Positions 6,356 through 35,527 of a DNA stretch of 35,527 nucleotides are shown in pieces. Within the stretch, counting starts at the first letter, position 1. Every line of letters starts with the position of its first letter. A program made the position numbers and the translations under genes. Source of the stretch: a virus. Taxonomy: Duplodnaviria > Heunggongvirae > Uroviricota > Caudoviricetes. The stretch lies in the IMG/VR virus record IMGVR_UViG_2734482778_000013, positions 1-35,527 of that record. The stretch is one strand, 5' to 3'. The notes under the pieces were generated by a model. It was not told the DNA's origin. It saw only the letters and a program-made list of their open reading frames with translations, and did not search any database.

Positions 6356-6672
6356 AGTATGCCGTTCTCACAAAAAAACCGCTTGCCATGCCGCAATCAG
6401 TCAGGTTACATTTCCGCTGCACCTCATAAAACGGGTGCCGGGATTGGAACCCCGCACACTAACAGAGCGCACAACCGCGCCAGCGGTTTTTTTGTGCGTA
6501 CCGTATCGCCACGTCTTTTTCGCGTCAGAATTATGGTGGGGCGTACAGGGCCAGCATCAGCTGGGCCGGGTCCTCTGTTAGCCGGTAGTTCCAACCCTGT
6601 ACGTCTCACCACCCCGAGCTTGGAACCTCTGGATGGTGAGTTTTCAAAACTGACTAACAGAGAGGCCACACC

Positions 6673-7347: not shown

Positions 7348-10170
7348 ATGACGGCAGAGTACATCAGGGACTGGCAACAACCGCGCCACGCAGTGGGGCG
7401 TGAAGGAACGGGGATCCCCGCTCCTGAATCCGCGCTTTCCTCCTGGCTGGATGCCTACCGGGTAGAGAACGAGCGCCGCCAGGAAATGGCTGATGCGGCG
7501 TTCTCCGCCACGCCGCTGGGCAACCTGATTAATAAAAGCCTGGACGCACAGGAAAAACAGGACAAAACCATCACACTGGCAGGAGACGCCAGAAAACAGG
7601 CACGCGGCGCGGTGGATGAAGCCATGGCCTCGCTGCGCCTGCTGCCGTCCTATCTGCGCGATCCGCTTATTCGCCACCTCTCCTTCCTGCGCAAAAAACA
7701 GGAAGCCGATCGCCGGAAAGGCAAAAAGAGCTGGCAGGCAGAACGCTATGCACGCGGAACCCTGCGCAAGATATTCGATCGCATTAACCGTGCCGACAGT
7801 CGCTGGCTGACACCGGGTTATCGCTCCCTCGCCGGACGTGAACGCCTGGATGATTTGCTTTACCTGCCGCAGCTCAACAAACACCAGATACAGACGCTGG
7901 CCACCATGACGGCGGCGATGTTCAGCAGCACCTTCGAAAAACTCTGCGATGGCTTTGGCGCGACCGATGGCGAGCTGACCATGGATGTAACCCTGAAGGC
8001 GTATCAGATGCTGGCCCGCATGGCGTTACACCTGCACGCCATGCCTCCACATTATGACGCACTGACAACAGACAAAGACCGGAGGAACGAACCGGACACG
8101 GAGCTGCTGCCGGGCGCAATCCTTCGCCTGACCTGTGCGGAATGGTGGAAACGCAAACTGTGGCTGTTACGTTGCGAGTGGAGAGAAGAACAACTCCGCG
8201 CCGCCTGTCTGGTTTCCAGAAAAACATCACCCTATCTGAGCCAGGACGCGTTAAGCGAGTTTCGCGCACAGCGCGAGAAAACACGCGATTTCCTGAAAAG
8301 TTTCATGCTGGAAAATGAAGACGGGTTCACGATTGATCTCGAGACGGTGTATTACGCGGGAGTAAGTAACCCGGTTCACCGTAAGGCAGAAATGATGGCC
8401 ACCATGAAGGGGCTGGAACTTCTGGTCGAAGCCCGTGGCGACAAAGCGGTGTTTCTGACTGTCACCTGCCCGTCAAAATACCACGCCACAACGGAGAACG
8501 GTCATCCGAATCCCAAATGGAACGGGGCCACAATGCGCGACTCCAGCGATTACCTGGTTAACACGTTTTTTGCGGCGGTCCGCAAGAAACTGAATCGCGA
8601 CGGCCTGCGCTGGTATGGCATCCGCACGGTGGAGCCTCACCATGACGGCACAGTGCACTGGCATATGATGGTCTTTGCACATCCGGAAGAAATCGACAGC
8701 ATCGTGGCCATCACCCGCGATATTGCCATTCAGGAAGACCGCCACGAGCTGGGCAATGATATTACTCCGCGCTTTAAGGTGGAGTATGTCGACGGCTCAA
8801 AAGGCACACCGACCAGCTATATCGCCACCTACATCGGAAAAAACCTGGACAGCCGCGCCGTGGATGGCATCGACCCGAAAACGGGCAAGCCACGCGTTGA
8901 CCACGAAACCGGAAAATCAATGGCCGAGAGCGTGGAGCGCGCCATCGGCTGGGCGCGCCTTCACCGCGTCCGCCAGTTCCAGTTCTTTGGCATCCCCTCC
9001 CGTCAGGTGTGGCGTGAACTGCGCCGCCTCGCCAGCCAGATGGCACGCAACCCGGAAGGCCCGCAACGGCTGAAGGATGACGCAATGGATGCGGTTCTTG
9101 CTGCCGCTGATGCCGGGTGTTTTGCCTCCTACATTGAAAAACAGGGTGGCGTACTTGTTCCACGCAAGGACTACCTGATTCGCACCGCCTACGACCTCGC
9201 AGATGAGCTGAACGATTACGGCGAGCAGGGCGTACAGATTTACGGGATCTGGTCACCACTCATCGGGGAATCCTCCCGTGTGTGCACGCATCCGGATAAC
9301 TGGAAGCTGGTAAGACGCAAACCGGAAGCGGAAGACAGCGCCCGCGAAAATGGTTTTGACCTTCAGGGCGGCCCTGCCGCCCCTTGGACTCGTGGCAATA
9401 ACTGTCCCCGTGTACAGGAAACAGGCAACAACGGGACAGAACAGCCGGAAGAACGGCCAGCACCGTGGCCGCAGATTCCTGACGGCGTTGAAGTGAATGA
9501 ATGGATGCGCTCACTGAAACGGCACGAACGCCGGGCGCTGATGCGTTCGCTTCGTGACAAACAGGCAAAAAACAGCAGTGATGAAATGCAAAGCTGGACA
9601 CAGAGCCGCAAACAGCAGCGGCCTTTGCCTGATAACCACGAATTACTCGCTAAAGAATGGCGGGAGTCTGCTGAATCTCTCGGCCTGCATATTGGTGAAC
9701 AGCAGATGCAGCACCTGTTACGGGGCGGCAGTCTGTACGTTGACGGCAGCATCATTGCACCGCAGGGATTTGAAATTGTACGCAAACCGGATACCCGCCC
9801 GGACAGCCGAATCACGCAGCTCTGGCAGCGCCTGAGCCGTAATCACGGCGTAAGCAGCACGGAGATCCGCCATAACCCGGCCGCCAGCTATCTGGAACAG
9901 CTGGGGGCATCAGACCCCGAAGCCGCCGCACGTCTGGCATCCACACTTCAGCAGGACCAGAACACCATGAAAACCCCCGTTACCGTGCTTTCTGACATGC
10001 TGCGCGCCATCCGCGACGCAGAGCATGCACAGAGAATCAGTGAAACCACTGAACGCGCCCGCCGCAAAGCAGACCTGCTGCGGGGTGGCCTGACAAGTGG
10101 AAACAAAAAACAGACAGAAACGGGATTCACAAATCCCGTAAATGAGCAAAAAACGCGCCGCGATATATGA
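7348..10170 (+). CDS. A: Rolling-circle replication initiator endonuclease (P2 gpA family), with long C-terminal extension
   Basis: HUH motif VHWHMMVFAHPEE and paired catalytic tyrosines YIATYIGKN; 940 aa (longer than P2 gpA); position after early operon. Confidence 0.85.
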   Translation: MTAEYIRDWQQPRHAVGREGTGIPAPESALSSWLDAYRVENERRQEMADAAFSATPLGNLINKSLDAQEKQDKTITLAGDARKQARGAVDEAMASLRLLPSYLRDPLIRHLSFLRKKQEADRRKGKKSWQAERYARGTLRKIFDRINRADSRWLTPGYRSLAGRERLDDLLYLPQLNKHQIQTLATMTAAMFSSTFEKLCDGFGATDGELTMDVTLKAYQMLARMALHLHAMPPHYDALTTDKDRRNEPDTELLPGAILRLTCAEWWKRKLWLLRCEWREEQLRAACLVSRKTSPYLSQDALSEFRAQREKTRDFLKSFMLENEDGFTIDLETVYYAGVSNPVHRKAEMMATMKGLELLVEARGDKAVFLTVTCPSKYHATTENGHPNPKWNGATMRDSSDYLVNTFFAAVRKKLNRDGLRWYGIRTVEPHHDGTVHWHMMVFAHPEEIDSIVAITRDIAIQEDRHELGNDITPRFKVEYVDGSKGTPTSYIATYIGKNLDSRAVDGIDPKTGKPRVDHETGKSMAESVERAIGWARLHRVRQFQFFGIPSRQVWRELRRLASQMARNPEGPQRLKDDAMDAVLAAADAGCFASYIEKQGGVLVPRKDYLIRTAYDLADELNDYGEQGVQIYGIWSPLIGESSRVCTHPDNWKLVRRKPEAEDSARENGFDLQGGPAAPWTRGNNCPRVQETGNNGTEQPEERPAPWPQIPDGVEVNEWMRSLKRHERRALMRSLRDKQAKNSSDEMQSWTQSRKQQRPLPDNHELLAKEWRESAESLGLHIGEQQMQHLLRGGSLYVDGSIIAPQGFEIVRKPDTRPDSRITQLWQRLSRNHGVSSTEIRHNPAASYLEQLGASDPEAAARLASTLQQDQNTMKTPVTVLSDMLRAIRDAEHAQRISETTERARRKADLLRGGLTSGNKKQTETGFTNPVNEQKTRRDI

Positions 10171-10217
10171 AGCGCGCATAAAACAGGCAAAAACGGGATT
10201 TAAAAATCCCGTAAACG
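10117..10217. promoter_or_regulatory. Two copies of a ~25-bp palindromic repeat; candidate parC-like centromere/ParR operator (alternative: replication-associated site)
   Basis: AAACGGGATTcacAAATCCCGTAAA at about 10118-10143 and AAACGGGATTtaaAAATCCCGTAAA at about 10191-10216, each an 8-bp-arm inverted repeat; the second overlaps the presumptive parM promoter. Confidence 0.5.
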
Positions 10218-10246
10218 ATTAATTAATCAACATAAGGAAAAGCGAC

Positions 10247-11206
10247 ATGAAAATTTGTATCGACGACGGCTCCACCAACATCAAGCTGGCATGGACTGAG
10301 AACGGCGAACGCCGCAACGCCATCAGCCCGAACAGCTTCAAGTCGGAATGGTCTGCGCCGTTCGGTGGCACGCAGCCCGCGAACTACATGCTTGATGGTG
10401 TGCGCTATGGTTTTGATCCGGTCAGCGATCGCTTTGTCCAGACGACCGACACGCAATACCAGTACAGCGATGTGAATGTCATTGCCATTCATCACGCGCT
10501 GGTCAAATCAGGCATCACGCCACAGGAGGTGGATGTGGTTGTCACCCTGCCACTGAGCGAGTATTTCGACACAAACGCACAGCCGGACATGGCCAACATC
10601 AACCGCAAAAAAGCGAACGTCATGCGCCCGGTGGAGTACCAGAACGGCGAAGCATTCACTATCCGTAACGTACGGGTTATGCCTGAATCCATTCCGGCTG
10701 GCTTTAAAGCACTGGCCGACATGAGTCCGTTTGAATCCCTGCTGATTGTGGATTTGGGCGGAACCACGCTGGATGTGGCAAAGGTTCAGGGGCAGCTGGC
10801 AGGTATCAGCCAGGTGTTTTGCGATCCACACGTAGGCGTTTCTCTGATGGCCGATGCCGTGCTGTCGGTGATGGCCACCAACGGTATGCGCACCAGTCAC
10901 CACATCGCCAATACCATTATCGAACATCGCCACGATGAAGCCTGGCTGCGCCAGCACATCCACAATGACGCGCATTACGCCAGCCTGATGGCAGTTATTC
11001 GTGAAAAGGAAGAAACACTGAAACAACGCGTGATCCGCGCGCTGGCGGGTTTTTCGGGTTACGGGCGGGTGATGGTTGTAGGTGGAGGAGCGGAGATTGT
11101 GGCACCCGCTATCTGCGAAGCCTGCGGAGTTAATGCGACTTTCATCGCGGACGGGGTGCCACAGTTTGCTCTGGTTAATGGGCTGTACGCAATGGACCAG
11201 GAGTAA
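10247..11206 (+). CDS. parM: ParM/StbA-family actin-like segregation ATPase
   Basis: Strong resemblance along the whole length to plasmid R1 ParM as recalled (IDDGSTNIKL..., YSDVNV..HHAL, VMPESIPAG, LIIDLGGTTLD, GGGAE, LVNG); AAGGAAAAG RBS. Confidence 0.85.
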   Translation: MKICIDDGSTNIKLAWTENGERRNAISPNSFKSEWSAPFGGTQPANYMLDGVRYGFDPVSDRFVQTTDTQYQYSDVNVIAIHHALVKSGITPQEVDVVVTLPLSEYFDTNAQPDMANINRKKANVMRPVEYQNGEAFTIRNVRVMPESIPAGFKALADMSPFESLLIVDLGGTTLDVAKVQGQLAGISQVFCDPHVGVSLMADAVLSVMATNGMRTSHHIANTIIEHRHDEAWLRQHIHNDAHYASLMAVIREKEETLKQRVIRALAGFSGYGRVMVVGGGAEIVAPAICEACGVNATFIADGVPQFALVNGLYAMDQE

Positions 11207-11210
11207 ATCA

Positions 11211-11525
11211 ATGACGACACCAACCAGACGGATAAGTTTCTATCTGAAGCCCACCGTCGTCAAGAGCGAACGGGAGGCGTGCAGTTACCTCGACAGCCTG
11301 CCAGCCTCCGAACGCAGCCGCGCACAACGCGCGGCTTTTCTGGCCGGACTGGCTCTTATAAAACGCACCCCCGCGTTGGCGTATTCGCTGGCAGAATGGT
11401 CAGAAGACGAAATACGGATGCCACCGCTACCAGTACAGCCTGAAAAACCGGCGCAACCAGCAGCAGACAGCGCCCCCCATATGCAGCAGGTGAAAAAGAA
11501 TATTCAGGCGTTTTTCCCGAAGTGA
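11211..11525 (+). CDS. parR: ParR/StbB-family centromere-binding adaptor
   Basis: N-terminal RHH-like region ISFYLKPTVVKSEREACSYLDSLPASERSRAQRAAFLAGLAL parallels R1 ParR as recalled; GGAG RBS; directly downstream of parM. Confidence 0.75.
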   Translation: MTTPTRRISFYLKPTVVKSEREACSYLDSLPASERSRAQRAAFLAGLALIKRTPALAYSLAEWSEDEIRMPPLPVQPEKPAQPAADSAPHMQQVKKNIQAFFPK

Positions 11526-11539
11526 AAACAGGAGTAACT

Positions 11540-11827
11540 ATGTCCACCATTACCAAAGAATGGTTACAACGTAAAATCACAGAGTTTAAATCGTGGCGCG
11601 AAGACATCCCGTTCGGTCTTGATGAAGACGATCACAATATGTTAATCGCACTGGAAATCGCACTTGCATCACTGGAAGCAGAGCCAGTGGCATGGATGCA
11701 CGCAAATAATCCTATTGGAATACCGGCGATAACAAGAAGTAAAGATGTTGCAGACAGCTGGCGCTCTAAGGGATGGAATGTATTGCCTCTTTATTCACTG
11801 ACCCGCTCCATCAATTTATGCCATTAA
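11540..11827 (+). CDS. Hypothetical protein (AT-rich cargo)
   Basis: 95-aa ORF from ATG 11540 with AGGAG RBS; track start 11522 is an upstream GTG. Confidence 0.5.
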   Translation: MSTITKEWLQRKITEFKSWREDIPFGLDEDDHNMLIALEIALASLEAEPVAWMHANNPIGIPAITRSKDVADSWRSKGWNVLPLYSLTRSINLCH

Positions 11828-11838
11828 TGGAAGTAATC

Positions 11839-12198
11839 ATGATGAAAGATAATTCCGGAAGCCAGCGTGCATCAGTTGCAGTTATGGTAATGATTAAATT
11901 TGTGAAACAGTACACCGGAAAGCCAATCTCGCTCCGGCAATTAAGCAAAGAAACCGTTTCACTGTCATATCTGGAGCAAATATTCAGATATTTACGGGAA
12001 AGTAGCCTGGTAAAAGCCACACGCGGCCCGGGTGGTGGATATATCCCAACAAAAGAAAATTACAGTGTTGGTGATATTGTCCGGGCAATGAAGTGTTCCG
12101 GATTATATACACAGCACGTTATTCTGGCTGCACTGGATAATATTTCTTTAACCAGCCTGCAGGAAGACACAAATTATCAGTTGTCTGCCATTAAATAA
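11839..12198 (+). CDS. Rrf2-family (IscR/NsrR-like) transcriptional regulator
   Basis: Rrf2 HTH signature ISLRQLSKETVSLSYLEQIFRYLRESSLVKATRGPGGGY; lacks the 3-Cys cluster ligands; low-GC region; GGAAG RBS before ATG 11839. Confidence 0.7.
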   Translation: MMKDNSGSQRASVAVMVMIKFVKQYTGKPISLRQLSKETVSLSYLEQIFRYLRESSLVKATRGPGGGYIPTKENYSVGDIVRAMKCSGLYTQHVILAALDNISLTSLQEDTNYQLSAIK

Positions 12199-12252
12199 GA
12201 AAACCCGGAACGGGTGCGCAAATTCTTTGTGCGCCCGTTCCGGGTTGGACAA
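12199..12252 (-). terminator. Long hairpin terminator downstream of ogr-like gene
   Basis: AACCCGGAACGGGTGCGCAAA-TTC-TTTGTGCGCCCGTTCCGGGTT, about 21-bp stem allowing G-U pairs; on the minus strand it is followed by TTTTCTTATTT. Confidence 0.55.
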
Positions 12253-12266
12253 GCGAAGCGCGTCAG

Positions 12267-12524
12267 CTATCCGGCCTGCAACAACTCCAGAGCCATTTGT
12301 TTTTCTTCCGGACGCATCCGCTCAATCAACAGCTTTAACACACCATTCTCCAGCCCGCTGGGCACCAGTGTGTGCGAGTAGGTCAGATTCATCACCCAGG
12401 TATGTCCGCACTCGAGACGGGTGCAACGGTAATACACATCAGCAAACTGATCGGTTTTCCAGGCTGTTTTCTCAATCACTGCATGTGCACCGCAGCAATG
12501 ACATCGCGCTTTCTGTCTGCGCAT
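12267..12524 (-). CDS. ogr: Ogr/Delta-family zinc-finger late-gene transcriptional activator
   Basis: C-x2-C-x22-C-x4-C arrangement (RCHCC...YYRCTRLECGHTW) matching P2 Ogr spacing as recalled; strong RBS GGGAGG before ATG at 12524; longer ORF-track start at 12593 rejected. Confidence 0.7.
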   Translation of the reverse strand: MRRQKARCHCCGAHAVIEKTAWKTDQFADVYYRCTRLECGHTWVMNLTYSHTLVPSGLENGVLKLLIERMRPEEKQMALELLQAG

Positions 12525-12568
12525 TTTCCACCTCCCGGAACAGCGTTTTACTGCCACCGATTTTACCC

Positions 12569-12588
12569 GCTCTTTCCCCATACCGCAC
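12569..12588. other. Candidate cos (cohesive end) site
   Basis: Minus-strand GTGCGGTATGGGGAAAGAGC shares the GGGGAAAG core and flanks with P2/186 cos as recalled; located at the 3' end of portal gene Q as in P2. Confidence 0.3.
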
Positions 12589-12589
12589 A

Positions 12590-13624
12590 TCACTCCATGG
12601 GTTCATCAAAATCAAGAATAAATTTCACCTCCCCCAGTCGTCTGATATCCGGGTCGCTGTTGATCCCCTCCATAATCAGGCGGCGCATCGGGATAACCTC
12701 ATCCCTGTAATATGCCTCGCGGGATTTCAGTGGGTCACCAAGCCCGGCCGTATTTGCGGGAATGATGCCGGCAAGTCCGGGTGGGAAACGGTGCGCAACG
12801 AGCTGATCCTGGGCACTGATGGTTTTTATATTCAGGAACTCATCTTTTGTACCTGAATCCCCGATAGGGATCACCTTAACGCCTTCTTTGTCTCCGCCCG
12901 GTATATTGATAAACATGGATTTAAAGTTGCCCGCCCCTTTTGACGCCTCTATCTTTTTACGGAATTCCGCCTCGAGCTCGGGATCCATGTCCGGGTCAGT
13001 GGAATACAGGATATAACCAAGATGTGCGCCGTTCTTGTAATACTTGCGGCGAAAGCGGGTGGCATCCACATTCAGCATGGCAGATTCCATCCCGTGAATA
13101 TAATCCGGGACACCGTAAACCTGCTGTTGTGGGTCATAAATTGCCACGAACACCACTTCGCCTGGCGGGTAAACGAGATCTTCCAGTGCCGCCTGCACAA
13201 TCACCGTGCCACCTTCGTTGTTGCGCCGCAGGTACAGAGAAGGCAACGTATGCAGGCGCACCACCCGCCCGAAGCCATTGCGCACTTTAAGCAGCCCCAT
13301 ATCCCCGAATATCAGCAGATTGGTCACCGCTGCCGCCATGGCGGCGTGTGTCATACCACCACCACCCCGAAAACCCTGCATGATCATATTGACGCGCGCA
13401 CGCAATACCGCGCCGTGATACGGTGCGATATTGGCCAACATAGCGAGATCCATGCGCTCAATGGGCGGCGTGTACCAGCCGTTATAGCCATCCCAGAGCG
13501 AGCCGTAATAACAGCCCCATGCAGCGACTGGTTCCGGGTCACCAAATTCAATAAACGTCATTTTGCTGGCTGTTTTTTTTGCCACGCCATCGTGTAGCAC
13601 GGGGGATTTTTTCTTTTTACTCAT
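12590..13624 (-). CDS. Q: Portal protein (P2 gpQ-like)
   Basis: 344 aa, same length as P2 Q; 8-nt overlap with terminase gene; synteny Q-P | O-N-M-L. Confidence 0.9.
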   Translation of the reverse strand: MSKKKKSPVLHDGVAKKTASKMTFIEFGDPEPVAAWGCYYGSLWDGYNGWYTPPIERMDLAMLANIAPYHGAVLRARVNMIMQGFRGGGGMTHAAMAAAVTNLLIFGDMGLLKVRNGFGRVVRLHTLPSLYLRRNNEGGTVIVQAALEDLVYPPGEVVFVAIYDPQQQVYGVPDYIHGMESAMLNVDATRFRRKYYKNGAHLGYILYSTDPDMDPELEAEFRKKIEASKGAGNFKSMFINIPGGDKEGVKVIPIGDSGTKDEFLNIKTISAQDQLVAHRFPPGLAGIIPANTAGLGDPLKSREAYYRDEVIPMRRLIMEGINSDPDIRRLGEVKFILDFDEPME

Positions 13625-15404
13625 CTGACAGGATCCATGTTGATTTGCGCTTGTGCTTATAGTTCAGAGGTTCATTACTTGCGGCATGAGCTATGGCAAA
13701 GAAGATGTCAGCGTGCCCGGTTTCTTCGCTGCGTTCGGCGGTGAAAGTGACTTTATTGCCACTGTTAGTGGACTCCTGACGAATGGCCAGGAACGATGCC
13801 GGAATATCTGTGGCTTCTTCATCCCACTCAATACGGTTGGCGTAAATCAGATCCAGCATCTTCATCACCAGGCGGTTTTTGGATTCAACGCTGTAATGAA
13901 TGGCCACTGTTTCACGGCGGGCAAATCCCTGGACCAGCTCAAAGACACCGTAGCCAAGACCGGTGACGTCAATGCCGATAAATGTCATGTTATAGCGCGC
14001 CTTAATGCTGCGGATACGCTCTGCCATAAACTGGAATGACATGCTGCGCCAGTGGTGTTTTTCCAGCACGCGGAATCGTTCTGCCGCAACCAGCGGCGGT
14101 GCCAGTACCACAAACGTGGCGTTATCGCCGGAGCGCGCAGGGTCAAAGCCACCCCACACCTCACAGTTACCAAATGGCATGGGCTCTTCCGGGTGAAAGT
14201 CCTCCCACGTACTGACATCAACACCACAGCGCACAAGGTCATCAAATTTAAAGACGCTCTCTTTGTCGTCCACAAACACGCACATAAACAGCATATTGAA
14301 CGCTGTTTCGTTGTACCGTTCGCGCAGCTCGTTGATGTCAGCAAGGTTAAAGCCGCCGGCAATGGCATCTTCCAGCGTAACCACATAGCGCCACTGACCA
14401 TCCGGGCATTCGCGCCCGCCATCGCGCAGCTCATCAAAGGACGGAAACTCAACCCCTTTTCGTTTCGGATCGCCTTTGCGCCATTCATCGCCAGACCAGA
14501 ACGGATAGCCCTGATGGGTTTTGGTTGACGGCGTGGAGAAGTAGGTAATGCGCCAGTGCGAGTGGGTGGCCATACCGGACGCCACTTCATTGAGGCGACG
14601 AAAGCCGGGGATCCACAGATATTCGTCAATGTACAGGTGGCCGCTGTTTGACTGCGCCGTGTTACTGTTGGTCGCCAGAAAATACAGTTCAGCCAGATTA
14701 CTTAACTTAACCGGGTTGCCTTTAATGGGAATGCCAAATTCCGTCTGTGCAATCTTAACGATATAGGTGCGGAACACTTCGGCCTGACGTTTTGATGCCG
14801 ATAAAAATATCTGTGTGTCGCCGGTTAATACCGCATCTTCAAATGCCTCAAACGCGAAGTAATACGTCGCCCCAATCTGGCGCGATTTAAGCAGGTTGCG
14901 TACACGACGGAATTTGTTTTCACGCAGGTGCAACTGATAAGCGAACAGTTTTTTGGTAAACGGCTCAAAACTTTCAGCAGTCAGCCCGGAAACGTCATTA
15001 GCTTTACGGGGGCGCTCTTTCTTACCTGCACCTTTTTCTCCGCGTTCTTCTTTTCCATAACGACCAGGCTGAGGAATGTCCGCCCCCATTCGTGCAATCT
15101 CAGCCATTCGCTCCGTGTGCTTGTTTCTGACCGACATCAGTTTGACGTGGTGGCCAATCAGGCGATCGAGTTCATCGTGTTCTTCCGGCGTTTTATGGTC
15201 ACGCTCCGCCAGTACAGCGAGACGCCGGGCGATGACATCCTCCACGCCCTCAGTATTAAGCTGTGTGTACCACTCAAACTTTGTCGCCCAGTAATAAACA
15301 ATTCGTGGGCTGTTCAGTCCGAGCTTCTTTTGTATTTCTTTTGGGGTGTGCCTTTTCAGATAGAGTGATTTTGCTGCGGCAATAACTTCATCAGAATAAG
15401 CCAT
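13617..15404 (-). CDS. P: Terminase large subunit (P2 gpP-like)
   Basis: 595 aa; position and overlap with Q; divergent from O. Confidence 0.9.
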   Translation of the reverse strand: MAYSDEVIAAAKSLYLKRHTPKEIQKKLGLNSPRIVYYWATKFEWYTQLNTEGVEDVIARRLAVLAERDHKTPEEHDELDRLIGHHVKLMSVRNKHTERMAEIARMGADIPQPGRYGKEERGEKGAGKKERPRKANDVSGLTAESFEPFTKKLFAYQLHLRENKFRRVRNLLKSRQIGATYYFAFEAFEDAVLTGDTQIFLSASKRQAEVFRTYIVKIAQTEFGIPIKGNPVKLSNLAELYFLATNSNTAQSNSGHLYIDEYLWIPGFRRLNEVASGMATHSHWRITYFSTPSTKTHQGYPFWSGDEWRKGDPKRKGVEFPSFDELRDGGRECPDGQWRYVVTLEDAIAGGFNLADINELRERYNETAFNMLFMCVFVDDKESVFKFDDLVRCGVDVSTWEDFHPEEPMPFGNCEVWGGFDPARSGDNATFVVLAPPLVAAERFRVLEKHHWRSMSFQFMAERIRSIKARYNMTFIGIDVTGLGYGVFELVQGFARRETVAIHYSVESKNRLVMKMLDLIYANRIEWDEEATDIPASFLAIRQESTNSGNKVTFTAERSEETGHADIFFAIAHAASNEPLNYKHKRKSTWILSDE

Positions 15405-15634
15405 AAACTACCTGTGGAATTTATTTTAATGGGTTTTCACCTTTTTTCGGTTCGTTCCGTAACGTTCCGTAATATCCCATTATTTGCCGCAGGCATTTTT
15501 TTAACGATTATCTGTTTTCGGTATTTTTCGGATATATGCGCATATCCGAAAGTACCGGAAATTAATCAGGTGACGGCTTTTTTATTTCCCACTTAAATAA
15601 CGCTCAGTTAATTTTTATCAGCGGGTTAATTCAG
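15405..15634. promoter_or_regulatory. Divergent late promoter region (P and O operons) with perfect 24-bp palindrome and tandem repeat
   Basis: Perfect palindrome TTCGGATATATGCGCATATCCGAA at 15527-15550; tandem CGTTCCGTAA x2 at 15452-15471; AT-rich. Confidence 0.55.
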
Positions 15635-17570: not shown

Positions 17571-18281
17571 ATGCCAACGCCAATGCAGCGACAACGTGCC
17601 CGACAGATGGATGAGCGCCGTGCAGCACTCATGACCAGAACGGACGGGAGCGCCGTCAGTACAGAGAGCCAGCACATTAAGCTGCTGGCACTGGATAACG
17701 ACATCAGACAACTGCACAACATGGAGCTGCTGTCTGACAAGCTGGAATTCAAGCGGAACACGCTGCTGCCCCGCTGGCTGCCACACGCACAGGCTTATCT
17801 GGAGGGGGAACGCGTCTATCAGAATCCCATTCTGGTGTACTGCATCATCTGGCTGTTCGATACCGGGCAGTTTGAGCTGGCGCTGCGGTGGACTGACATT
17901 GCCATTGAGCAGGGACAGAAGACGCCGGAGAACTTCAAAAGCGAGCTGCCAACGTTTGTGGCCCATTTCATTCTTGAATGGGCAGAAACCGAAGCTGAAC
18001 GCGGGAACAGTATCGCGCCATATTTTCAGCAGGTGTTTGAAAACATCCGTGACAAATGGCGCGTGAATGAACGCCTTGCTGCCCGCTACTGGCGCTTTGC
18101 AGGCGTCCTGCTGTTGCGCGGCGATGACGGTAAACCGCTGGCCAGTGCAATTAACGATCCGGAGAGACTGCAACAGGCCGACCAGTGTCTGGAACAGGCT
18201 GCCTGGCTGCATCCAAAAATTCAGGTGAAAACCCTGCGCCAGCGCATTGCCGCAAGACTGCGCGCGTTGCAGGGCACGTAA
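17571..18281 (+). CDS. M: Terminase small (endonuclease) subunit (P2 gpM-like)
   Basis: 236 aa; synteny after capsid gene. Confidence 0.8.
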   Translation: MPTPMQRQRARQMDERRAALMTRTDGSAVSTESQHIKLLALDNDIRQLHNMELLSDKLEFKRNTLLPRWLPHAQAYLEGERVYQNPILVYCIIWLFDTGQFELALRWTDIAIEQGQKTPENFKSELPTFVAHFILEWAETEAERGNSIAPYFQQVFENIRDKWRVNERLAARYWRFAGVLLLRGDDGKPLASAINDPERLQQADQCLEQAAWLHPKIQVKTLRQRIAARLRALQGT

Positions 18282-31784: not shown

Positions 31785-32331
31785 CGGGGAAGCCATTCTG
31801 TTACGCAACATCACCGTCAGCGCCACCATGCAACTACCGGATAAAGATATGTCCGGACAGTCAACCAGCACCACCAGTGCTCAGCAGGGAAGCAAGGCTA
31901 AAGAGCTGCGTGTATCAGGCGTCATTGATTTTAATGATGAAGCTGTTCTGACCCGTATATTTCAACTTGCAGAAGCCACAGAAAGCAACGGGGCTAAAAA
32001 AACATACCGCATCGCCAACGCTACTGCTAAGGCGATTAATATGCGACAGGGTGTTTTTTCGGGCGGTATTGATGCAACGGAACAACAGGGCAAGATGCAC
32101 TGGCAGGTCACCTTTACTCTCAGGGAAAAATTAAGCGTGCCGGAAAAAGCATCGGCACGCAGTGGCTCACAGAAAACAATCGCAAAGCAGCAGACACAGA
32201 ACGGCAGTGAGCAGGCACCGGATAAAGGAATAAATACCCAGGAGACTTTCTGGAAAAATATCAATGATGGTATTGGCTCCGGGCTGGACTGGATTGGCAT
32301 CGGGAGCGTGAAAGAGGAAGGGAAAACATGA
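31756..32331 (+). CDS. Putative tail/baseplate-associated protein
   Basis: 191 aa; ATGA-coupled to downstream hub/spike gene; function from context only. Confidence 0.4.
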   Translation: MTQMIVLALDGEAILLRNITVSATMQLPDKDMSGQSTSTTSAQQGSKAKELRVSGVIDFNDEAVLTRIFQLAEATESNGAKKTYRIANATAKAINMRQGVFSGGIDATEQQGKMHWQVTFTLREKLSVPEKASARSGSQKTIAKQQTQNGSEQAPDKGINTQETFWKNINDGIGSGLDWIGIGSVKEEGKT

Positions 32332-34025
32332 AATTAATCCAACGTTGCATGATTAATGGCGAGCTGGCGGAAATTGCCGATATCAGCCTTGTTCTTACCC
32401 TGAATGCTGCAGGTCGCGGCTTCATTTCTGTTAATAATCTGTCACCGGAAAAAAGCCTTGCCGGCGCAATGATACAAATTGATCTCGGCCGTAATGGTGA
32501 GGCATGGCGCTATTTCTCCGGCTACATTGAGCGCGATCAACCCGCCGAAAATGGCTCACGCCGCCTTTTTATCCGTGAAGCAGCTGCCGTGCTGGATTTT
32601 GATTTCCCCTGCTCCATGCAACATCCAACGTTACGGGATGTACTCGATAATCTGGGTAAACAAAGCGGCATCGTTTTCATCACGCCAGAAGCGGATTATG
32701 TCGGTACACCGACACCTTACATCACCCACAGCGGCAGCGGAGCACAACTGCTCAGCCAGCTGGGGCGAGCATTCAGTATCAGCGATTACGTCTGGCATCC
32801 AATGCCGGACGGTTCCGTATTTGTGGGAAGCGCACCGGATTCACGGTTTGCCAGTATTACCATGCCGGATATTCCGCAACAGTACACTCTCGGGCAAAGC
32901 GGCGGAAACAGCATCGACATCATGTTTATGGAAACTGTGCGACCGGGCGTGAACCTTCCGGCCGGGCGCATTACCCGTGTAGCCCTCAACAACGAGAAAA
33001 TGACCCTGACATGGGAACGCCTTACCGCCACGGGTAGCCCTGTTTCCAAATCACCATTACGCAGACAGATGGAAACACAGTTCCCGGAACTGGCCAGCGG
33101 CACTCTACATACTAGGCTGGCGCGCGTCATTGCACCAACGGAATCCGTCACCCTGGGCGATATTGCCGACAGCTTCCGCCCACGCTACGCCGTCGATGTG
33201 CAACTGCTTGATGAGAACGGCAACGATAAAAGCGATACGCCTGTTTATCCGGCAGTACCACTCCCCGTCCCGATGGCTGGTAGCGAGGCGGGATGTTTTG
33301 CCTACCCGCCGGCAGGCACCATCGTGGAAATATCCAACATTGAAGGGCGACCGGATAAACCTGTCATCAGGCAAATCTTACCCGCGGGCCATAACCTGCC
33401 TGATGTAAAGCCCGGCGAACAGCTGCAGCAACAGCGCGCAGAAGTGTTTCAGCGCGTCACGACTGACGGAAGCTGGCACAGAGAAACTGACCAGCAAATC
33501 AGGGAGCATTCAGCCAGGCGAACCATTAACAGCGATCAGGAAGAACGCACAACAACAACCAGAACAACAACAGTCCAGGCAAACGACATAACCAGTGTTC
33601 TTGGTACCAGTAAGCTGATGACAGGCCAGACAGAACACCTTACTACCGGCAATTATGCGATCGCAGCCGGTGAGCATATCCAGATGGTAGCGCAGGATTT
33701 GCTGACTCAACTCAAAGGGGCGATATCCACCATTGAGCATGACCTCACCGAAAACGTGGGAGGCCGCAGAACATGCAGGGCGGACGGCGGTCTGGAGTTT
33801 ACCGCCCCGACAGTATTTATTGGTCGCGGCGGCTCGCGGGAAAAGTCCGGGCTTAACCTGCTGACGTTGCTGATCGATATTCTGGATCTGATTCAATTGC
33901 TGGCCACACATACAGCAAACCACACCCATAGCAACACAGGCACGCCAATGAACAGCGGCGAACTTGCCGCAGATGCCCTGCAGGCGACGAGTCTGCGCGA
34001 AAAATACGGCGACATTATCGCCTGA
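32328..34025 (+). CDS. Baseplate hub/central spike protein (gpD/gpV-like fusion, VgrG-like)
   Basis: 565 aa; C-terminal His-rich apex-like motif HTANHTHSNTGTPMN; large size and terminal position in tail module. Confidence 0.55.
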   Translation: MKLIQRCMINGELAEIADISLVLTLNAAGRGFISVNNLSPEKSLAGAMIQIDLGRNGEAWRYFSGYIERDQPAENGSRRLFIREAAAVLDFDFPCSMQHPTLRDVLDNLGKQSGIVFITPEADYVGTPTPYITHSGSGAQLLSQLGRAFSISDYVWHPMPDGSVFVGSAPDSRFASITMPDIPQQYTLGQSGGNSIDIMFMETVRPGVNLPAGRITRVALNNEKMTLTWERLTATGSPVSKSPLRRQMETQFPELASGTLHTRLARVIAPTESVTLGDIADSFRPRYAVDVQLLDENGNDKSDTPVYPAVPLPVPMAGSEAGCFAYPPAGTIVEISNIEGRPDKPVIRQILPAGHNLPDVKPGEQLQQQRAEVFQRVTTDGSWHRETDQQIREHSARRTINSDQEERTTTTRTTTVQANDITSVLGTSKLMTGQTEHLTTGNYAIAAGEHIQMVAQDLLTQLKGAISTIEHDLTENVGGRRTCRADGGLEFTAPTVFIGRGGSREKSGLNLLTLLIDILDLIQLLATHTANHTHSNTGTPMNSGELAADALQATSLREKYGDIIA

Positions 34026-34090: not shown

Positions 34091-34750
34091 CTATCCACCA
34101 CCTGATTAATGCGTTCTGCGTGCCATTCTGGCGCTGTATGCACACACTGCGTAAACGGTGTGACGTAAAGCGTGAGGTGACGTAAACCGCGCTACCCCCT
34201 CCAACCCGCGGGTTTTGTGTCGAAACACTTTTTCAGTTTTCTGCCGTGCAAAAATGACCGCCAGCCCGCGCAGCAACTGAGGGAAAAGCGAAGATCTGAA
34301 ATTTCACGCTTTGAAATTTTTTGCAGTTTTCAGAGTGGTTTTTACGATCGAATAAATGGCAGGAGAAAGAAAACAGACTGATATTAAAAGAGTTTTTATG
34401 CTTTACGTGAGACGAGAAACGATCACGAAAGGATCGCATCAAAAAATCGTCAAACAACGAAGCCAGACGCGGCGCGGCCTGCGTAAAATTAAGAGTCAAA
34501 ATTAAACTGAAAAAAGGATCAATACAGTGCATCGATCGCACATGACGATCTACGCAGCAACAGGACAAAAAAACCGGCGCGAACGCCGGCGGAAGCATGT
34601 ATCAAATGCGTGACTGAATAATGTCTGCGGTCGGGAATTTTATATCAAAAGGCTGACAGGCCTCAACGGATTGAAACAAGGGAAAAAACCAGGCTAGAAT
34701 TCGCGCGGGTGCCTTTCGGCTGATGGCTGGAGGGTAAACCCGAAGGCCGG

Positions 34751-34990
34751 ATGTGGAAAGGCCCCGAGTCAACTTTAACGTTAACCCGAGGCCCTAGCCA
34801 TACAACCTTCGCAAGTCGTAGGTTAGCGCCTCTCCGAAAAAGGAGCAAGTGCTATGTCGCAAAAATCGCTAATCGCCATCACCACACTGTGCGTGACGGC
34901 AATCCTCATCATCTGGATGTTGCAGGGTTCGCTCTGCGAGATACGGATGAGCTTCTGGGGAGCGGAGTTTGCGGCGTTCTTACAGTGTAA
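34751..34990 (+). CDS. mok: mok-like overlapping reading frame of hok locus
   Basis: 79-codon ORF starting about 100 nt upstream of the hok-like ORF in a different frame and ending 7 nt before its stop. Confidence 0.4.
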   Translation: MWKGPESTLTLTRGPSHTTFASRRLAPLRKRSKCYVAKIANRHHHTVRDGNPHHLDVAGFALRDTDELLGSGVCGVLTV

Positions 34991-34997
34991 ACCGTAA
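34854..34997 (+). CDS. hok: Hok/Gef-family type I toxin (47 aa)
   Basis: Translation MSQKSLIAITTLCVTAILIIWMLQGSLCEIRMSFWGAEFAAFLQCKP: TM helix followed by SLCEIR...AAF motif as in R1 Hok; GGAG RBS; below ORF-track cutoff. Confidence 0.75.
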   Translation: MSQKSLIAITTLCVTAILIIWMLQGSLCEIRMSFWGAEFAAFLQCKP

Positions 34998-35006
34998 GGA
35001 AACCGC

Positions 35007-35028
35007 GACGGGGGAGCAATCCCCCGTC
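35007..35028 (+). other. Perfect 8-bp hairpin at hok mRNA 3' region (possible fold-back element)
   Basis: GACGGGGG-AGCAAT-CCCCCGTC located 10 nt after hok stop. Confidence 0.45.
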
Positions 35029-35084
35029 AATCGGTTGCCAGGGTAAGGCCGATAAGGCACCCCATCTCACAAACCTGAATGCAA

Positions 35085-35118
35085 AAAGCCCGCAAGATTA
35101 ATCGCGGGCTTTTTATTT
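35085..35118. terminator. Bidirectional rho-independent terminator
   Basis: AAAAAGCCCGC-(loop)-GCGGGCTTTTTATTT: GC stem flanked by A-run and T-run; lies between convergent hok locus and minus-strand ORF. Confidence 0.65.
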
Positions 35119-35140
35119 CAAGAGAGGTGGTTAGCTCTGA

Positions 35141-35527
35141 TTATTCTTCATTTTTCTTTGGCGTTATTACCACAGCGGCGAGCTTATCAATCAGGCGCTC
35201 ACACGCATCAACATCTTTGAGGTTTCTTAATTTGAGCTTTGCAGTTTTAGGCTCATCGTCTCTGGTACAAAGGTGTAATTCAACTTCGACATCATTCCTG
35301 TTCAATAACCCCATAATAACCTCTGCAAATTTTTTCGCCCGTGAGAGCAACTCAAACATAACACTAAGCATATCGGGTGCATTCGCAGAGAAGCAAGTCA
35401 CACGACCTATATCAAATCCATTATTTTTAAAATACTCCTCTATTGAAGAGGAAAGCTCTGAAGGACATGTAATCCTGACACCTGCAAATCGGGACTGATG
35501 TAATGGCGTTCCTTTTAAATATTGCAC
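35141..35527 (-). CDS. Hypothetical protein, N-terminally truncated by window edge
   Basis: Open frame runs to the last base of the window (first codon GTG); stop at 35141-35143. Confidence 0.4.
   Translation of the reverse strand: MQYLKGTPLHQSRFAGVRITCPSELSSSIEEYFKNNGFDIGRVTCFSANAPDMLSVMFELLSRAKKFAEVIMGLLNRNDVEVELHLCTRDDEPKTAKLKLRNLKDVDACERLIDKLAAVVITPKKNEE

Follow-up and report, generated by a model that had tools for sequence, protein, structure and literature searches.

An Ogr-like gene between the cargo and portal genes of an E. coli HP1/K139-like prophage, and a probable HP1/phiO18P-type cos downstream of the tail genes

In phage P2, the ogr gene stands at the distal end of a late operon, behind gene D and next to attP, and is followed by a terminator. 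The Ogr protein is 72 aa long and starts just before its first cysteine pair, and the late promoters of P2, 186 and P4 carry an activator dyad, TGT-N12-ACA, at about -55. The cos of P2 and 186 is a 19-nt sequence, GGCG(A/T)GGCGGGGAAAGCA(C/T), found some 190 nt downstream of the portal gene and beyond its terminator; in the records of the two phages cos occupies positions 1-19, the terminator 160-187, and the portal 3' end lies at 187/196. Another layout has been described for the K139/HP1-like branch, the ogr homolog of K139 and SMHB1 being located between the portal and replication endonuclease genes (PMC8537503), and the cos of HP1-like phages adjoining attP rather than lying downstream of the portal gene (PMC2771037). 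In the HP1 record, cosL spans positions 1-9 and attP 251-694, int lies at 698, and orf35 ends 192 bp before the right end. In the phiO18P record, a cosL and a cosR of 16 nt are annotated some 200 bp past the orf35 homolog, and the K139 record ends 174 bp after the last tail gene; our comparisons with K139, F108 and vB_YenM_324 rest on the GenBank feature tables of these phages.

The window analysed here, which is the whole 35,527-nt stretch of IMG/VR record IMGVR_UViG_2734482778_000013, is an HP1/K139-like prophage of E. coli belonging to the P2 family (Peduoviridae). An integrase gene (1-1008, (-) strand) is followed by early genes and then by the replication gene gpA (7348-10170), behind which come ParM and StbB-like partition genes, a small ORF and an Rrf2-family gene. 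The ogr-like gene, the portal gene Q (12590-13624; Pfam Phage_portal) and the large terminase gene P (13617-15404; Pfam Terminase_6N/6C and Terminase_5) all lie on the (-) strand, Q and P being transcribed toward ogr, and O, N, M, L and the tail genes follow on the (+) strand, as judged by Pfam and by the PGAP annotation of a 99% identical prophage. The last tail or baseplate gene (32328-34025, (+)) is homologous to HP1 orf35 (38% identity, E 8e-131) and K139 orf39 (32%, E 5e-92). The window ends short of attR, and the prophage may be defective. The lineage lives in E. coli, whereas K139 is a Vibrio phage. The best portal matches among isolated phages, vB_YenM_324 and HP1, reach 53-54% amino-acid identity, and megablast with the ogr-portal region returned no match among isolated phages; the ogr-portal segment itself was found in 43 of 5426 complete E. 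coli genomes. Terminase and portal are those of the HP1 clade. The small terminase subunit, a gpM homolog encoded at 17571-18281 (+) (PHROG 74) and the protein expected to recognise cos, shares 40-47% identity with its counterparts in YenM_324, SW5, phiO18P, F108 and HP2 (in pairwise comparisons, 41% with phiO18P TerS, 43% with F108 M and 40% with HP2 M) but only 24% with P2-type M, and by these sequence relationships belongs to the HP1/phiO18P clade.

The first-pass annotation of this DNA had placed an Ogr-type zinc-finger gene between the cargo hotspot and the portal gene, and this proved correct. The gene (12267-12524, (-)) is a 258-nt CDS encoding 85 aa from an ATG, or 108 aa when the ORF is read from a GTG at 12593, and lies between the end of the variable cargo (the Rrf2-family gene stops at 12198) and the portal gene. 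Its product matches the full length of Pfam Ogr_Delta PF04606 (model positions 1-47/47, E 9.4e-13, 48.3 bits against a cutoff of 26.3) as well as PHROG 603, 'transcriptional regulator' (3.2e-29), and is 46% identical to the zinc-finger protein encoded by K139 orf13. The translation carries the cysteine spacing C-x2-C-x22-C-x4-C (CHCCGAHAVIEKTAWKTDQFADVYYRCTRLEC) which, together with membership of PF04606, it shares with P2 Ogr, 186 B and P4 Delta; all four cysteines are invariant in an alignment with SW5, YenM_324 and ESSI-2. At 85 aa the protein has a longer C-terminal tail than P2 Ogr. PGAP calls this 258-nt CDS in the 99% identical E. coli prophage. The homologs of gpA, Q, P, O and M that flank the gene are those of a P2-family phage with late morphogenetic operons, and we regard it as a putative late-transcription activator of the Ogr/Delta family.

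The same annotation had described the gene as relocated. It does lie next to the portal gene Q and not, as in P2, behind gene D at the attP end, yet this is its usual placement in the K139/HP1-like branch. The gene is relocated only with respect to P2, because K139, SMHB1, SW5, YenM_324 and ESSI-2 share the arrangement, a homologous 'regulator' ORF abutting the portal gene in each of SW5, vB_YenM_324 and ESSI-2; the placement is thus the standard, already published layout of K139/HP1-like Peduoviridae. As in the window, K139 orf13 is found between the replication and portal genes on the portal strand, with a putative promoter of its own (P13) just upstream and a terminator after the gene. The two loci differ in that an extra small ORF, orf14, separates the portal and zinc-finger genes of K139, where the window has a gap of 65 bp.

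Conservation within this 65-bp gap suggests that it contains the ogr promoter and 5' UTR. A hexamer, TAAAAT, at 12560-12565 (-), 35 nt upstream of the ATG, is the putative -10 box of a promoter belonging to ogr itself. It is invariant in a four-phage alignment and present in 22 of 23 K139/YenM-type rows, spelled TA-AAA-T, the exception (L033) reading TAACAT; three rows besides these 23 (L034, L052 and L057) have an unrelated upstream region. The putative promoter P13 is annotated at the equivalent relative place in the K139 record. A consensus scan of 12100-12750 returned no sigma-70 promoter because the -35 is poor. A Shine-Dalgarno sequence read from the DNA, GGAGGTGG (12528-12535, (-)), stands 3 nt upstream of the ATG at 12524.

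The gap might instead be coding, with the Ogr-like protein starting at GTG 12593, ATG 12590 or ATG 12581 (104-108 aa) in translational coupling to the portal gene and with TAAAAT reflecting a conserved (V/L/I)-K-(S/F/L) peptide. In most lineages the frame does run uninterrupted back to the portal stop codon, and a start codon overlaps or adjoins that stop; annotators called ORFs of 106-108 aa in SW5, YenM_324 and ESSI-2, and the PHROG 603 alignment begins at residue 2 of the long form. However, codon choice in the motif does not vary (GTA/TTA/ATA followed by AAA and T.. in every case), as expected of constraint at the DNA level, and TAAAAT persists in two relatives (L027 and L028) in which a stop closes the upstream extension. 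A GGAG/GAGG-type Shine-Dalgarno box is moreover retained before the internal ATG across divergent lineages, PGAP picks the 85-aa form, and K139 orf13, like P2 Ogr, starts just before the first cysteine pair. We therefore consider a coding gap improbable, and favour a promoter with its 5' UTR.

Downstream of ogr, the predicted hairpin with a 21-bp stem was also confirmed. Its 21-nt arms (12202-12222 and 12226-12246) are 90% complementary and enclose a 3-nt loop; the RNA folds at -36 kcal/mol (z = -5.0), a value reached by none of 200 shuffles. Since a U-run, UUUUCUUAUUU, trails the hairpin on the (-) strand, the element at 12202-12246 (-) is the Rho-independent terminator of the P-Q-ogr late operon. 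In one relative (L031) the stem is preserved through compensatory changes on both sides. The hairpin is absent from four relatives with other cargo (L014, L015, L022 and L025), and a fifth (L024) has a different hairpin of its own.

The presumed targets of the Ogr homolog appear to differ from those of P2, 186 and P4. TGT-N12-ACA occurs eight times in the window against 8.3 expected, and none of these occurrences falls in the P/O intergenic region (15405-15634), which has instead a perfect dyad, TTTCGGATATATGCGCATATCCGAAA (TTTCGG-N14-CCGAAA), at 15526-15551. Both CGTTCCGTAA and the TTTCGG-N14-CCGAAA dyad are confined to the P/O intergenic region, and so delineate no late-promoter regulon. The lack of TGT-N12-ACA at P/O argues for a different DNA specificity and not against activator function.

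The portal-ogr gap was also where the first-pass annotation had seen a cos-like 19-20-mer, just past the portal 3' end, that together with ogr would define the packaging boundary and so explain why cargo accumulates between gpA and this point. The 19-mer, TGCGGTATGGGGAAAGAGC, spans 12569-12587 (-), and its octamer GGGGAAAG is indeed present at 12572-12579 (-), 11-18 nt beyond the portal stop codon, but the likeness to P2/186 cos is at chance level. Aligned to the two sites, the 19-mer is identical at 12/19 positions to P2 cos and at 11/19 to 186 cos, and an ungapped scan with the P2 19-mer found 60 sites in the window scoring at least 12/19, 13 of them better than 12/19. The octamer occurs twice in the window against 1.11 expected, a count of two or more being reached in 29 of 100 shuffles. 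The degenerate GGCGWGGCGGGGRAA, allowing up to 3 mismatches, matches the window six times where 3.7 matches are expected, without a match close to 12.5 kb, and no local alignment to the entire P2 cos junction was obtained. Taken together, the searches for P2, 186 and SEN4-5 cos (exact 8-mer, degenerate 15-mer, 19-mer scan and junction alignment) did not rise above chance, whether at 12.5 kb or in the intergenic regions.

In favour of a P2/186-type cos at 12569-12587 (-) one may cite the location of cos downstream of the portal gene in P2 and 186, the description of P2-like hotspots as cos-adjacent (PMC9122126), and the octamer itself; this octamer and a rough nearness to the portal 3' end are the only points of likeness. 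Against it, the purine-rich stretch that contains GGGGAAAG varies freely among relatives, even in close homologous contexts, where only TAAAAT is conserved. The position is also wrong: the 19-mer lies 3-21 nt from the portal stop codon, within the P-Q-ogr unit and upstream of both ogr and its terminator, whereas the P2 and 186 sites lie on the other side of the terminator. The portal and terminase of the HP1 clade, with a small subunit so remote from P2-type M, and the significant HP1-type cos homolog at 34.19 kb described below, speak against it as well. That the packaging boundary lies here is accordingly highly improbable, and the octamer is a chance match in the spacer of the ogr promoter, unrelated to packaging. 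Two neighbouring gaps were also considered as seats of cos and rejected. The 68 bp that separate ogr from the cargo (12199-12266) cannot hold it, because L014, L015, L022 and L025 carry other sequence all the way to the ogr stop codon, and several close relatives that swap this segment keep the 34.19-kb element. The 76-bp gap after gpA (10171-10246) contains only a terminator-like hairpin, without similarity to any cos.

The cos is most likely located at 34187-34212, on the evidence of sequence homology, and is of the HP1/phiO18P type. The probable core, CCGCG/CTACCCCCTCCAACCC/GCGGG, starts about 162-165 nt past the last tail gene, whose stop codon is at 34025 (153-165 nt in relatives), and is preceded by three direct repeats of the ACGTAAA type, TGCGTAAAC / TGACGTAAAG / TGACGTAAAC (34148-34187, (+)), which begin 122 nt after that stop codon and are proposed to bind terminase. 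Read across, the window junction is TGCGTAAAC-GGTG-TGACGTAAAG-CGTGAGG-TGACGTAAA-CCGCG-CTACCCCCTCCAACCC-GCGGG-TTTTGTGTCGAAACACTTTTTCAG, to be compared with ...CCACGGAAAC...CCACGGAATCCGCG/CTCATCCGCTCCCGCC/TGCGGG... in phiO18P, ...CACGGAAA..CACGTAAAAAC..CACGGAAAATCCACT/TCCTTCCCCACCGAATTT...TTTTTTCAG in HP1 and ...CACGAAAAATCCACT/TCCTCCCCCGCCGAATTT...TTTTTTCAG in F108. The window core aligns position by position with the 16-nt cohesive end annotated in phiO18P (CCGCG/CTCATCCGCTCCCGCC/TGCGGG), with HP1 cosL and with the ends of the F108 record, and equivalents of the window's repeats (CACGGAAA/CACGTAAA) precede the ends of all three phages. The common features are thus repeats of ACG(G/T)AA, a C-rich core set between CCGCG and GCGGG, a T-rich right flank (TTTTTCAG) and, in HP1 and phiO18P, a distance of 150-200 bp from the end of the last, orf35-type tail gene, toward attP and int. 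In sequence the cores are distinct, being CTACCCCCTCCAACCC in the window, CTCATCCGCTCCCGCC in phiO18P and TCCTTCCCC in HP1. The cohesive segment is predicted to lie within 34192-34207; the exact cut positions are uncertain, because the annotated overhangs differ (9 nt in the HP1 record, 16 nt in phiO18P). In K139, the point at which the record is opened lies some 40 nt rightward of the core homolog.

A nhmmer profile built only from the junctions of five other phages (HP1, F108, phiO18P, K139 and YenM_324) gave, over the whole window and both strands, a single significant match at 34159-34256 (E 5.7e-8); the next best had an E-value of 0.26, and there was nothing near 12.5 kb. Conservation among 24 IMG/VR relatives peaks at 0.98 over 34176-34215, and of 21 close relatives 20 have the 26-nt core without a change, as does a relative of 86% identity (L114). 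Around and to the right of the core, a conserved non-coding block (34180-34436), possibly a cosB-like region, is all that can still be aligned as DNA beyond the tail gene when relatives with a tail protein of only 60% identity are compared. This block occurs in 50 E. coli genomes, compared with 43 for the ogr-portal segment; in two genomes that were checked, some 21.7 kb separate it from the portal gene, as they do in the window. The element is also kept in L096, L102 and L108, which share their contigs with L022, L025 and L014, the relatives from which the hairpin segment is missing. IMG/VR contig ends, taken as a proxy for termini, fall 300-977 nt or more beyond the tail gene and never at the core, and are thus no guide to where the virion DNA ends.

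Conceivably, the conserved block at 34.15-34.44 kb is some other cis element of the DNA near att (Int/IHF arm sites, for example, or regulatory sequence), and the real cos lies outside the window or is missing from a defective prophage. The block does belong to a long, GATC-rich non-coding region, and the window stops before attR. However, the core aligns without gaps in register to the cohesive ends annotated in phiO18P and HP1 and to the F108 record ends, its distance from the orf35 homolog equals that in the cos-bearing phages, and the HP1 attP and the tRNA-like att of phiO18P lie 250-560 nt further on. We consider this explanation very unlikely, and retain the HP1/phiO18P-type cos. One difference from the described phages concerns what follows the element: in a relative, the prophage end is reached only after some 2.5 kb of accessory DNA with hok, an ORF, com and a methyltransferase gene, whereas the corresponding gap in HP1 and phiO18P is 250-480 nt.

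The identity of the zinc-finger gene, the structure of its terminator, the lack of similarity to P2 cos and the homology of the 34.19-kb element to annotated cohesive ends are established, and we propose, with good confidence in the reading as a whole, that the locus is the 3' end of the leftward head operon (P, Q, ogr) of an HP1/K139-like prophage, with ogr provided with its own promoter and terminator and with cos at 34187-34212. The 85-aa Ogr/Delta protein would act as the presumed activator of the late promoters. Its gene would be transcribed from a weak promoter of its own, with the conserved TAAAAT -10 box, and late transcripts starting at the P promoter could run into it as well; such read-through would give positive feedback, in an arrangement that matches P2 ogr behind gene D. 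Transcription of P-Q-ogr is predicted to end at the hairpin, and packaging would start from the HP1/phiO18P-type cos on the attP side of the genome, the small terminase probably binding the three ACGTAAA repeats.

This reading corrects the packaging boundary, in that the linear genome of induced virions should start and end near 34.2 kb and not beside the portal gene, and the move of cos alters the annotation, orientation and bounds of the prophage element. It also provides a concrete cos prediction for an E. coli HP1/K139-like lineage without an isolated representative, the best portal match being about 53% identical. The gene, its placement and the location of cos all follow published patterns; the uncoupling of the cargo hotspot from cos is the one mildly interesting point.

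The variable cargo segment (11363-12266, (+)) contains the small ORF (11540-11827) and the Rrf2-family gene (11773-12198; Pfam), and its break points in IMG/VR relatives are 11363/11518 (left) and 12267/12193/12152 (right). The homologous gpA-Q interval of P2 is likewise a hotspot, and is cos-adjacent there (PMC9122126). In the window, the cargo is not explained by the packaging boundary, because that boundary is not at 12.5 kb: the cos homolog is 21.6 kb away. A hotspot between gpA and the portal gene can therefore exist without an adjoining cos, which bears on the idea of cos-end recombination for the hotspots of P2 and P4. The cargo segment sits where the rightward early and leftward late operons converge, with the terminator sometimes swapped along. 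We see an even chance that this hotspot, which persists with cos so far off, owes its site to the meeting of early and late operons at a terminator that can be swapped and not to recombinogenic cohesive ends, as suggested for P2/P4, and that the cos- or att-proximal hotspot of this lineage is a second variable region. The latter starts at about 35094, to the right of hok and some 0.9 kb from the probable cos, between it and the prophage end. The alternative cargo of the relatives includes an FRG-domain protein with a weak SMODS match, and a ParA-like ATPase with a RelA_SpoT protein. We note that the stretch to the left of the cargo, comprising the 3' end of gpA, ParM and StbB, is common to many other prophages and present in about 1300 E. 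coli genomes.

Positions 34148-34436 of the window hold a probable cos site of the HP1/phiO18P type, whose core (34187-34212) is preceded on its left by three ACGTAAA repeats and followed on its right by a conserved GATC-rich non-coding block that reaches ~34560 in close relatives. Read as its reverse complement, the core contains GGGTTGGAGGGGGTAGCGC (34189-34207, minus strand), which matches the 19-mer of P2 cos at 12 of 19 positions in full register (GG...GG.GGGG..AGC.C). The cos-like 19-mer placed by the first-pass annotation at 12569-12587 (minus strand) scores equally against P2. The resemblance of GGGTTGGAGGGGGTAGCGC to the P2 sequence may hint at a distant common ancestry of the two cos cores, in inverted orientation; alternatively, a likeness of 12/19 may have arisen by chance.

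Located between the probable cos on one side and the prophage end on the other is a Hok/Gef-family toxin gene (34854-34997, plus strand; Pfam HOK_GEF, E 6.5e-7), the conserved flanks of which (34670-35094) resemble the MokW/Hok loci of Stx phages and P88-like phages. With one exception, the homology of close relatives ends at ~35065-35094. Here, close to the cos/att end, a second region of variable cargo begins, which occupies ~35094-35527 and continues beyond. Past the homology stop, one relative carries a com gene and a DNA methyltransferase gene followed by the host gene flk. attR lies beyond the end of the window.

Directly 3' of gpA, at 10247-11525, are genes for ParM (StbA_N/ParM) and an StbB-like protein, plasmid-type partition genes that sit here inside an integrated prophage. 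The segment formed by the gpA 3' end, ParM and StbB recurs at 90-99% identity in a small number of plasmids and in ~1300 genomes of E. coli, whereas the head module (the ogr-portal segment) is found in only 43 genomes, so that the prophage genome is mosaic. In the hotspot between stbB and the ogr-like activator gene, more distant IMG/VR relatives carry cargo that is defence-like. In L024 this is a protein that has an FRG domain and also matches a SMODS-like nucleotidyltransferase weakly, below the Pfam cutoff; in L027 it is a ParA-like ATPase together with a RelA_SpoT-domain protein.

In the early region, positions 6419-6616 (plus strand) give Rfam matches to the isrK Hfq-binding RNA (6419-6493; 72 bits) and to the C4 antisense RNA (6529-6616; 78 bits), and are a P1/P7-type antisense immunity module. 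The same place is annotated as an 'ash family' pseudogene in a matching, 99% identical E. coli prophage.

No TGT-N12-ACA box was found in the divergent promoter region of the terminase gene P and gene O. The region does contain a tandem of two copies of CGTTCCGTAA (15453-15472) and a perfect 26-bp dyad, TTTCGGATATATGCGCATATCCGAAA (15526-15551), together with the further TTTCGG/CCGGAAA half-sites by which this dyad is flanked, and these are candidate sites at which the Ogr-like activator may bind.
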